The notes beneath the pieces are model-generated. The model was given only the letters and a program-made list of their open reading frames with translations, did not search any database and had not been told where the DNA came from. From an uncultured Christensenellaceae bacterium (GTDB lineage Bacteria; Bacillota; Clostridia; Christensenellales; Borkfalkiaceae): a stretch of 64,000 bases of DNA. Positions 16,430-24,611 of this stretch are shown here, one piece after another. Position 1 is the stretch's first letter, and every line of letters starts with the position of its first letter. Position numbers and translations under genes: made by a program. Location: positions 5,723-69,722 of the forward strand of contig CAJUIR010000006.1 in the NCBI GenBank assembly GCA_910586655.1, written 5' to 3'.

Positions 16430-16538
16430 ATGTTTATGCGTTTTCTCCTCGTCCGTATAAAACCTTACGTTTATTATACAAGAAATTAAGGCATATTCAT
16501 TCGGCTTTCAATATATTGAAAATATAAACTTTTTTCCA

Positions 16539-16570
16539 TAAAAAAAGACATTCGCAAGGAATGTCTTTTT
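16539..16570 (-). terminator. Intrinsic terminator of the tRNA-Pro transcription unit
   Basis: Stem AGACATTC/GAATGTCT followed by T7 on the minus strand, immediately 3' of tRNA-Pro(CGG). Confidence 0.8.
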
Positions 16571-16647
16571 TGGTCGAGGCGACGGGATTCGAACCCACGA
16601 CCTCTTGGTCCCGAACCAAGCGCGCTACCAAACTGCGCTACGCCTCG
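16571..16647 (-). tRNA. tRNA-Pro (anticodon CGG), CCA encoded
   Basis: Hand-folded cloverleaf: CGAGGCG-TA-GCGC-AGTTTGGTA-GCGC-G-CTTGG-TTCGGGA-CCAAG-AGGTC-GTGGG-TTCGAAT-CCCGT-CGCCTCG-A-CCA. It has C1:G72, A73 and G37, as in bacterial tRNA-Pro. Confidence 0.9.
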
Positions 16648-16734
16648 ATATTGGCATTTTATGCCGCGAAACGCCGGTTATAAAGCGCTTCGTCTGAATA
16701 TTGTAATGCCGCGAAGATTTCCTTCGCGGCACGT

Positions 16735-16811
16735 TGGTTGAGGTGACGGGACTTGAACCCACGACCTCTTGGTCCCTAACCAAGCGCGCTACCAAACTGC
16801 GCTACACCTCA
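16735..16811 (-). tRNA. tRNA-Pro (anticodon AGG, A at wobble position 34), CCA encoded
   Basis: Hand-folded cloverleaf: TGAGGTG-TA-GCGC-AGTTTGGTA-GCGC-G-CTTGG-TTAGGGA-CCAAG-AGGTC-GTGGG-TTCAAGT-CCCGT-CACCTCA-A-CCA. It has U33, G37 and A73. The acceptor-stem differences from the CGG copy are compensatory (U1:A72, U6:A67). Confidence 0.8.
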
Positions 16812-16826
16812 ATAAAAGCATTTATC

Positions 16827-16854
16827 ATTATAGAGAAATTTTATCATGTGTCAA
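16827..16854 (-). promoter_or_regulatory. Near-consensus promoter of the tRNA-Pro pair
   Basis: Minus strand TTGACA-16 nt-TATAAT, ending ~15 nt upstream of the 5' end of tRNA-Pro(AGG). Confidence 0.75.
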
Positions 16855-23180: not shown

Positions 23181-24611
23181 TCAGTAGGCTCTTGCAAAAA
23201 ATACCGTGTGAACGGATTCTTTTCCGCAGACTACGCACTTTTTCACCGAATTGGTTTTATCCATCACGCGCGAAGTCGCCTGCGCAAATTCTTTCACTTT
23301 GTCCTCGCAGGCGCGGCATCCGCACCAACCGGCGCGAACGAAATTGCCCGTGTTGACGCCCTCCAACAACCCGTCGAGCGTTTCCGCGTTCACGATCCTC
23401 GAATCCATCCGTTCCTTCGCTTTCCGGTACATATTTTCCGAAATTTCTTTTAAAAGCGCTTTTACGCTCTCGGCGGCGCCGTCGAGCAAAATTTCGGATT
23501 TCTCGAAATTATCGCGCCGTGCGCACAGCATTTTCCCAGCCTCCAAATCGCGCGGACCGAGTTCGATGCGGAGCGGCACGCCCTTCATCTCCCATTCGTT
23601 GAACTTCCAGCCGGGGGAGTTTTCGCTGTCGTCCAAAACGACGCGAAGACCCGACTCCGTAAGCGATTGTTTTAACGCGCGGCAAGCGTCCAATACGCCC
23701 TCTTTTTTGGCGGCAATGGGAATGATCACTGCCTGTACGGGCGCAACGACGGGCGGCATCACCAAACCTCTGCTGTCGCCGTGCGTCATGATCAGCGCGC
23801 CGATCAGACGCGTCGATACGCCGAACGACATAGTATAACCGTATTTCTGCACGCCGTCTTTATCTGTAAATTTAATATCGAACGCCTTTGAAAAATTCTG
23901 ACCCAAATAATGCGACGTTCCCGACTGCAAACTCTTTCCGTCGTGCATCATGGCTTCCATTCCGTACGTTGCAACCGCGCCCGCGAACTTCTCCTTTTCG
24001 GTCTTCTTCCCCGTTAAAACGGGCATTGCAAGCACGTTTTTGGAAAATTCTTCGTAAACGGCAAGCATCTTCTGCGTCTCCGCTTCGGCTTCCTCTGCGG
24101 AAGCAAAGACAGAATGTCCCTCCTGCCACAAAAATTCGCTCGTTCTCAGGAAAGGACGCGTCGTCTTTTCCCAACGCATGACGTTTGCCCACTGGTTCAT
24201 GCGAAGGGGCAGATCGCGCCAGGATTCGATCCAGTTTCCGTACATCTTGCCGATAATGGTTTCCGACGTAGGACGGATGCAGAGCGGTTCCGCAAGTTTT
24301 TCGCCGCCCGCGTGGGTCACTACGGCTACTTCGGGCGCAAACCCTTCCACGTGTTCCGCCTCTTTGGTCATAAAACTCATGGGGATCAAGAGCGGAAAAT
24401 AGGCGTTTTCGTATTCGTTCTCACGAAAGCGCGCGTTAAATTCGCGTTGGATATTCTCCCAAATCGCATACCCGTAGGGACGAATAACCATCGTGCCCTT
24501 TACGGGTCCGTAGTCTACCAGTTTGGTCTTTAACACGACGTCCGAATACCATTGCGGAAAGTCGCTTTCGATGTCTGCAATCTGCGATACGAACTGATTC
24601 TCTTTTCCCAT
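23181..24611 (-). CDS. proS: Proline--tRNA ligase, archaeal/eukaryote-like class IIa form (no INS editing domain)
   Basis: 476 aa. It has the FPQWYSDV..LVDYGPVKGTMVIRPYGYAIWE N-terminus, a C-terminal Zn module (CGCRAC...CVVCG) and the conserved terminal Tyr (..FARAY). Confidence 0.92.
   Translation of the reverse strand: MGKENQFVSQIADIESDFPQWYSDVVLKTKLVDYGPVKGTMVIRPYGYAIWENIQREFNARFRENEYENAYFPLLIPMSFMTKEAEHVEGFAPEVAVVTHAGGEKLAEPLCIRPTSETIIGKMYGNWIESWRDLPLRMNQWANVMRWEKTTRPFLRTSEFLWQEGHSVFASAEEAEAETQKMLAVYEEFSKNVLAMPVLTGKKTEKEKFAGAVATYGMEAMMHDGKSLQSGTSHYLGQNFSKAFDIKFTDKDGVQKYGYTMSFGVSTRLIGALIMTHGDSRGLVMPPVVAPVQAVIIPIAAKKEGVLDACRALKQSLTESGLRVVLDDSENSPGWKFNEWEMKGVPLRIELGPRDLEAGKMLCARRDNFEKSEILLDGAAESVKALLKEISENMYRKAKERMDSRIVNAETLDGLLEGVNTGNFVRAGWCGCRACEDKVKEFAQATSRVMDKTNSVKKCVVCGKESVHTVFFARAY

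Follow-up and report, generated by a model that had tools for sequence, protein, structure and literature searches.

tRNA-Pro(AGG) and tRNA-Pro(CGG) as the proline tRNA set of a gut lineage of Christensenellales

The closest described relative of the decoding arrangement considered here is the arginine CGN box of bacteria, which is served by tRNA-Arg(ICG) and tRNA-Arg(CCG). Like the proline box of the genome analysed in this work, it is covered by one A34 and one C34 tRNA, has no tRNA with U34 or G34, and its A-ending codon is rare. The A34 tRNAs of the two boxes share positions 33, 34, 36, 37 and 38 of the anticodon loop and part at position 35, which is C in the arginine and G in the proline tRNA; moreover, editing by TadA is proven for tRNA-Arg, whereas tRNA-Pro(AGG) is a candidate by its sequence. 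A second parallel is tRNA-Leu(AAG) of the Lactobacillales (Oenococcus oeni, Streptococcus pyogenes and oral streptococci), which is read as IAG. This too is an additional A34 tRNA that has displaced the G34 tRNA in a C-starting box, its loop differs from that of tRNA-Arg mainly at position 35, as does the loop of tRNA-Pro(AGG), and our genome likewise has tRNA-Leu(AAG) and no tRNA-Leu(GAG). In the Lactobacillales, however, the U34 tRNA has been kept whereas here the U34 tRNA, tRNA-Pro(UGG), is lost, and editing by an adapted TadA has been shown for the leucine tRNA while tRNA-Pro(AGG) is known from sequence.

The AGG anticodon itself has been met before. It has been placed in proline tRNAs of Salmonella and E. 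coli, in the form of proL G34A mutants and of an orthogonal tRNA(AGG), and there the tRNA is functional and CCC is read on a bacterial ribosome. These are, however, unmodified laboratory constructs in cells that keep their other proline tRNAs, whereas the tRNA described here is natural and occurs clade-wide, and three codons would depend on it alone. In eukaryotes, the cytosolic tRNA-Pro(AGG), which is read as IGG, has the same anticodon and likewise occurs without a G34 isoacceptor, but it is edited by the heterodimeric and sequence-tolerant ADAT2/ADAT3, and UGG is kept beside it. Finally, the same kind of gene exists in Lachnospiraceae, Oscillospirales-like bacteria, Bacteroidales and Succinivibrionaceae, often in tandem with CGG and never together with GGG; unlike the clade discussed here, most of these lineages keep UGG and thus have the set AGG, CGG and UGG. 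A 2026 survey covering 4047 cultured bacteria names Leu(AAG) and Thr(AGU) as the common extra A34 tRNAs and states that these replace G34 tRNAs only, never another isoacceptor. We found no paper on a bacterial lineage with AGG and CGG as its whole proline set; the catalogues of Firmicutes A34 tRNAs by Rafels-Ybern (2018, 2019) may list Pro cases.

The proline tRNA operon, its codons and its distribution

The window, that is the whole stretch of 64,000 nucleotides that was analysed, holds exactly two tRNA genes according to ARAGORN, both on the minus strand and both for proline. tRNA-Pro(AGG) (16735..16811, minus strand) is 77 nt long and scores 65.0 bits (E 2.9e-13) against the Rfam family RF00005, with full model coverage and with the cloverleaf and the conserved bases of an elongator tRNA. 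It has the pairs U1:A72 and U6:A67, A73, an encoded CCA end, the anticodon loop UUAGGGA and the T-loop UUCAAGU. Its wobble base A34 lies at position 16777 of the minus strand and is a T on the plus strand, where inosine would show as a T-to-C change in RNA reads. The partner reading CCG, tRNA-Pro(CGG) (16571..16647, minus strand), is also 77 nt long, has C1:G72, A73 and an encoded CCA end, and scores 66.9 bits. Both scores are far above the RF00005 gathering score of 29 bits, and all stems are paired in both tRNAs. The earlier note on this DNA had described an AGG and a CGG gene 87 nt apart and had read AGG as the anticodon of a sound tRNA; ARAGORN and the Rfam scores bear out both points, and both genes are good tRNAs. 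The two genes differ at seven positions (1, 6, 34, 57, 59, 67 and 72), and the compensatory changes that had been seen in the acceptor stem are indeed there, 1:72 and 6:67 each being U:A in the AGG and C:G in the CGG gene.

The promoter proposed to precede the pair, of the sigma-70 type with TTGACA-16 nt-TATAAT (16827..16854, minus strand), agrees with the consensus at 12 of 12 positions, and the end of its -10 box lies 15 nt upstream of the 5' end of tRNA-Pro(AGG). The 87-nt spacer between the tRNAs (16648..16734, minus strand) folds with -37.6 kcal/mol (z -5.4), which none of 200 shuffled sequences equalled; it contains an 11-bp G+C-rich hairpin directly after the AGG tRNA as well as two further hairpins, and it matches no Rfam family. 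The spacer probably plays a part in the structure or the processing of the precursor. As to the terminator expected after the CGG gene, folding reveals a hairpin of 12-15 bp followed by U7 (16530..16573, minus strand; -14.5 kcal/mol, z -3.96), a likely intrinsic terminator, but a consensus terminator scan lists nothing after this gene. Since the flanking genes code for an alpha-amylase-family protein and a Na/Pi cotransporter, the pair constitutes a free-standing two-tRNA operon, in which AGG would read CCU, CCC and the rare CCA, and CGG would read CCG.

The window also carries proS (23181..24611, minus strand), and the assignment of its product to the archaeal-like type of prolyl-tRNA synthetase holds: it matches TIGR00408, the archaeal/eukaryote-like type, with 588 bits (cut-off 437), and its best solved relative is the Thermus thermophilus enzyme 1H4Q (1.7e-165). 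The gene is present in a single copy and no second ProRS gene was found in the genome. ProRS of the archaeal/eukaryote-like type relies on G35 and G36 and cares little for the acceptor end. tRNA-Pro(AGG) carries both of these bases, together with G37 (for m1G37), and because the synthetase is of the type that relies on G35 and G36, charging of this tRNA with proline is plausible; it would proceed via G35/G36, and the U1:A72 end would hence be irrelevant. The mistranslating tRNA-ProX of Streptomyces combines a proline tRNA body and a non-proline anticodon with a dedicated second synthetase, ProRSx; the tRNA described here is not of that type, for its anticodon AGG belongs to proline and the genome has one ProRS only. 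Elsewhere in the family, the four genomes of the genus g93 (G149, G169, G187 and G204; 95-98% complete) have no archaeal-type ProRS match at E <= 1e-60 and may use a different ProRS type.

The genome which holds the window (1.38 Mb in 16 contigs, 98.25% complete) has 39 tRNAs by whole-genome ARAGORN, and AGG and CGG are the only proline tRNAs among them. A third proline tRNA was detected in the genome neither with an nhmmer profile of the tRNA-Pro of the family nor with a scan for an NGG loop plus T-arm. The search for GGG and UGG isoacceptors which the earlier note had asked for thus found both missing. Two more A34 tRNAs are encoded in the genome, tRNA-Arg(ACG) as well as tRNA-Leu(AAG), the latter outside the window at contig C1:147819-147903. 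Within the family, leucine tRNAs with AAG and GAG alternate among the genera independently of Pro(AGG), and at least four distinct backbones carry Leu(AAG), of which two come close to that of GAG; this suggests, by this comparison of genes, repeated G34/A34 switches for leucine as well. We also note, near a contig end outside the window (C1:308752-308805), an apparent 3' half-tRNA, made up of a T-arm and of an anticodon arm with GGU (Thr), which ARAGORN does not call.

From this gene content tRNA-Pro(AGG) is predicted to be the only possible reader of CCU and CCC in the genome. In 1071 long ORFs the proline codons are distributed as CCC 43%, CCG 34%, CCU 19% and CCA 3.4%, and in six housekeeping genes and the ribosomal-protein operon as CCC 59-61%, CCG 18-20%, CCU 21% and CCA 0.6%. 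CCU and CCC, whose use had been singled out for checking, accordingly make up 62% of all proline codons genome-wide and 80-82% in the highly expressed genes. As these two codons dominate and have AGG as their sole reader, this tRNA would be the major proline isoacceptor, with CCC as the preferred codon. The highly expressed genes likewise use few of the A-ending codons of the two other boxes that have an A34 tRNA, CGA (0.6-3%) and CUA (0.3-0.8%), whereas GCA, GUA and GGA stand at 19-30%. With AGG and CGG as the only tRNAs, UGG and GGG gone and CCA rare, the proline box appears to be decoded in the manner of the bacterial arginine CGN box, which has no U34 tRNA and a rare A-ending codon.

The earlier note had taken a proline tRNA with encoded A34 to be a rare exception among bacteria and had itself named routine occurrence in the clade as the finding that would speak against this. 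The tRNA is routine here, and the claim of rarity fails. All five genomes sampled from the genus carry AGG, as do 8 of 23 genera in the family; within the order it was found in 30 of 251 genomes, which belong to 14 of 130 genera and 5 of 39 families. A scan of species-representative genomes with an AGG-specific pattern returned at least 119 loci; in 106 of the 119 loci listed ARAGORN calls a tRNA-Pro(AGG), and tRNAs of this type occur in more than 100 species-level genomes. Many of the loci listed come from Christensenellales-type MAGs (labelled Borkfalkiaceae, Borkfalkia, Coproplasma, Scatosoma or 'Christensenella'), others from Lachnospiraceae, Oscillospirales-like bacteria, rumen Bacteroidales, Succinivibrionaceae and Flavobacteriales. 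Taken on its gene features and distribution, tRNA-Pro(AGG) is best regarded as real, functional and ordinary for this clade, and proline decoding in the clade is a new twist on the known A34/I34 theme.

Inosine or adenosine at position 34

We cautiously favour the view that AGG is the main working proline tRNA of these bacteria, that it has displaced GGG and UGG, and that its A34 is deaminated by TadA. The single TadA of the genome would carry out this last step; the steps that precede it, which are set out further below, come from the comparison of genes. A check for TadA paralogs, also proposed beforehand, yielded one TadA only (contig C10:38964-39422 of the genome, outside the window), a protein of 152 aa which matches NF008113 with 150.8 bits (cut-off 150) and contains the HAE and PCxxC motifs. 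The three A34 loops of the genome, which read CUACGGA in Arg, CUAAGGA in Leu and UUAGGGA in Pro, agree at positions 33, 34, 36, 37 and 38, and the proline loop departs from that of the TadA substrate tRNA-Arg(ACG) at positions 32 and 35 only. As a TadA substrate should, it has U33, A34 and G36, and its 7 nt are carried by a stem of 5 bp (CUUGG/CCAAG); C35, on which E. coli TadA is strict, is G35 here, which may still allow editing. In the structure of S. aureus TadA with RNA, C35 is solvent-exposed and makes no base-specific contact, whereas G36 is recognised by two residues, a Phe and an Arg, both of which are conserved in the TadA of our genome. R26 and R152 are believed to confine E. coli TadA to C35, and at these positions the TadA of our genome has Gly and Met. 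S. pyogenes TadA, for its part, accepts A35. The differing position 35 would be the one that TadA reads least.

The use of CCA also argues for inosine. CCA is no less frequent in AGG genomes than in relatives that keep UGG, and it tracks the use of CGA, the CCA/CGA ratio being 0.4-1.6 in AGG genomes. Inosine is the known way of reading CCA without UGG. Taken together, these observations lead us to consider conversion of A34 to inosine somewhat the better-founded reading. That the TadA of this clade deaminates tRNA-Arg(ACG), tRNA-Leu(AAG) and tRNA-Pro(AGG), and thus serves every C-starting four-codon box, is a broader proposal to which we would give an even chance.

The TadA proteins of the clade have some peculiarities of their own, which likewise count in favour of inosine. 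In the family of our genome, those of the AGG genera group together in a single clade whose stem branch is long (0.45 changes per site; support 100/99), and across the split between AGG and non-AGG genera identity to the protein of our genome falls from about 67% to about 53% for TadA but only from about 71% to about 66% for ProRS. In the loop that follows beta-4 (after FGAYE) the AGG-genera proteins have lost two residues and show a sequence of their own, FGAYEQKGRSLTE, and they read PCPMC-M-GA where relatives have PCPMC-A-GA, with Met in place of Ala behind the second zinc-binding Cys. In G112, a genome of another family, this loop has a deletion of 6 residues. Convergent change of TadA in independent AGG lineages was considered and rejected, because in the families f10, f27 and f37 the loop and the pocket are those of their non-AGG sisters. 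The change is specific to the family f1, perhaps with G112, and in f1 may be plain phylogenetic divergence.

The alternative that deserves most attention retains the same AGG and CGG layout and the loss of UGG and GGG but leaves A34 unmodified; CCU would then be read by a Watson-Crick pair, CCC by an A:C pair and the rare CCA weakly, in the 'two out of three' manner, with support from the two strong G:C pairs that a proline codon forms. We consider this possible, if on the doubtful side. TadA of E. coli and of Salmonella leaves tRNA-Pro(AGG) unmodified, and in these hosts such a tRNA is functional and fitness-neutral: the Salmonella proL G34A tRNA and the orthogonal tRNA(AGG) in E. coli, both unmodified, read CCU about as well as CCC, and CCA and CCG at about 1%, and the proL G34A tRNA of E. 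coli was detected unmodified and had no effect on fitness. According to reviews, A34 tRNAs of bacteria other than tRNA-Arg mostly go unedited, and in O. oeni this is the case for the Thr and Ser A34 tRNAs. That no consistent TadA change runs through the independent AGG lineages of the order and that CCA is nearly absent from highly expressed genes also suits an unmodified A34. However, every CCA would then require an A:A pair, and there are 476 such codons in the ORF set of our genome, while in the relative G141 CCA makes up to 20% of the proline codons. Neither the level of CCA, which UGG-keeping relatives do not exceed, nor its parallel with the inosine-read CGA would be expected under this explanation. 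Moreover, the authors of the survey of cultured bacteria infer that unmodified A34 is poor at four-way reading, and the loop of tRNA-Pro(AGG) keeps every TadA determinant except position 35. It is on these grounds that we prefer deamination by TadA.

Loss of UGG and GGG and origin of the AGG gene

For the comparison of proline tRNA sets a looser pattern was used, which detects all tRNA-Pro with a normal D-arm, anticodon loop and T-arm. By this pattern most families of the order have UGG and CGG, and some have GGG in addition. In the family of our genome, AGG was found in 25 of the 71 genomes sampled (8 of 23 genera) and 24 of the 25 are without UGG and GGG; among 20 further AGG genomes from five families of the order the same holds for 19. 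AGG and CGG alone hence make up the proline set in 43 of 45 AGG genomes of the order. UGG occurs in 32 of the 46 non-AGG genomes of the family (Fisher p = 4e-8 against the AGG genomes). GGG was not seen alongside AGG in any of the 45 AGG genomes of the order or of 26 from other lineages, so that GGG is absent wherever AGG is present, as befits an A34 tRNA replacing a G34 tRNA, and outside the order AGG usually stands beside UGG and CGG. As judged by these gene sets, the general rule is that AGG replaces GGG, and UGG has additionally been lost in this order.

The two exceptions are of different kinds. G320, of family f39, is the sole genome of the order in which AGG, CGG and UGG were seen together, and it is possible that it represents an intermediate state before the loss of UGG. 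G143 (1.1 Mb, 31% GC) has AGG and UGG (loci L179 and L180) without CGG, and its UGG tRNA is built on a CGG-type backbone; the CGG gene of this genome seems to have been turned into a UGG gene.

The sites of the lost genes can be recognised. Four relatives that lack AGG have a conserved operon, Pro(UGG)-Met-Asp-Phe-Thr(UGU)-Tyr, which follows three conserved protein genes and of which UGG is the first gene. Contig C15 of our genome has the same three genes, a promoter and then Met-Asp-Phe and the start of Thr(UGU) at the contig end, with no proline tRNA between promoter and Met. The operon likewise begins with Met in nine AGG genomes of six genera, where it has the same genes and promoter ahead of it and the 1.5 kb upstream are free of tRNAs. 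The GGG gene of G140 is the last in a Gly-Arg-His-Gln-Lys-Lys-Leu-Pro cluster, and the counterpart of this cluster in our genome ends after Lys(CUU) at a terminator.

It might be argued that a UGG gene lies in unassembled DNA and that AGG stands in for GGG alone. The 16-contig draft indeed has no tRNA for Tyr, Ile, Ala(UGC) or Thr(GGU), the end of a contig truncates its Thr(UGU), and AGG coexists with UGG and CGG in other lineages. We nevertheless think this very improbable: the ancestral site is assembled and has no gene between the promoter and tRNA-Met, it is empty in nine other AGG genomes, some of them on contigs of 300-500 kb, and the same pattern that finds UGG in the non-AGG members of the family finds it in only 2 of the 45 AGG genomes. 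In view of the assembled sites, the loss of UGG is best taken as real and not as an assembly gap.

Low CCA was considered as a signature of the loss of UGG and rejected, as mid-GC relatives with UGG use CCA equally rarely; a clear shift exists only in a low-GC pair, G142 (AGG and CGG, 32% GC) with CCU 70% and CCA 13.5%, and G143 (AGG and UGG) with CCA 55% and CCU 32%, each from about 150 codons. Low CCA is a family-wide property that predates the loss of UGG, and it may have made this loss possible.

The source of the AGG gene was sought by comparing full-length genes of nine relatives. AGG has acceptor and anticodon stems of the CGG type (cgaggtg...cacctcg; CUUGG/CCAAG), unlike those of UGG (cggggtg) or GGG (cggggta; loop CUGGGGG), and in G162 base 34 is the single difference between the AGG and the CGG gene. 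On account of the CGG-like stems and of this pair we take it that the AGG gene arose from a copy of the CGG gene, in which a change of C34 to A gave tRNA-Pro(AGG). Its derivation from GGG by a G-to-A transition was rejected, the acceptor and anticodon stems being CGG-like. In other families of the order AGG resembles the CGG gene of the same genome more than it resembles AGG genes elsewhere; either the change from CGG to AGG would have occurred more than once, or gene conversion keeps the tandem copies alike. In the subclade the AGG tRNA subsequently took over from the ancestral GGG and UGG, and their genes disappeared. That the AGG gene is instead a decaying or redundant CGG duplicate with a chance anticodon mutation is hardly credible, for although it stands in tandem with CGG and derives from a CGG-type gene, it scores as well as the CGG gene, has a consensus promoter in front, is conserved with compensatory stems in eight genera of the family and five families of the order, and no other tRNA of the genome is able to read CCU or CCC.

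The U1:A72 end, which the earlier note had listed among the features of the AGG tRNA, is not tied to the anticodon: the genera g86, g87 and g88 have AGG with C1:G72, and in g14 the CGG tRNA has U1:A72 as well. This pair is confined to a subclade of the genera g1, g14, g15 and g94. An AGG-specific identity change was thus rejected because of the C1:G72 AGG tRNAs of the three sister genera, and the acceptor end is best described, from its distribution, as a trait of the lineage and not of AGG, which agrees with the archaeal/eukaryote-like type of ProRS. A separate feature concerns the anticodon loop. The tRNA-Pro(GGG) of the family, e.g. L170, L173 and L176, have C32 and G38, which are able to pair, and the AGG, CGG and UGG tRNAs have U32 and A38; the loops of GGG and of the other tRNA-Pro of the family agree with a published link between a purine at position 34 and positions 32/38.

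Significance for proline decoding in the lineage

Textbooks and recent surveys of cultured bacteria regard A34 tRNAs outside Arg as rare and as substitutes for the G34 tRNA of their box alone. We describe a gut lineage in which a proline A34 tRNA has replaced both the G34 and the U34 tRNA, and in which tRNA-Pro(AGG) would carry about 60-80% of proline decoding. Annotation is directly concerned, since an essential gene of this lineage would be mislabelled by software which treats A34 tRNAs as suspect. Either a bacterial TadA has broadened its range to include a G35 substrate, or three codons are naturally served by an A34 left unmodified. If TadA has broadened in this way, this bears on the origin of the many-substrate eukaryotic enzyme and on TadA engineering. 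If the TadA of the clade does serve every C-starting four-codon box, its proline tRNA would be the first bacterial tRNA-Pro(IGG), with a proline box read by I34 and C34 alone without U34, and would represent a natural bacterial step towards eukaryote-style use of inosine.
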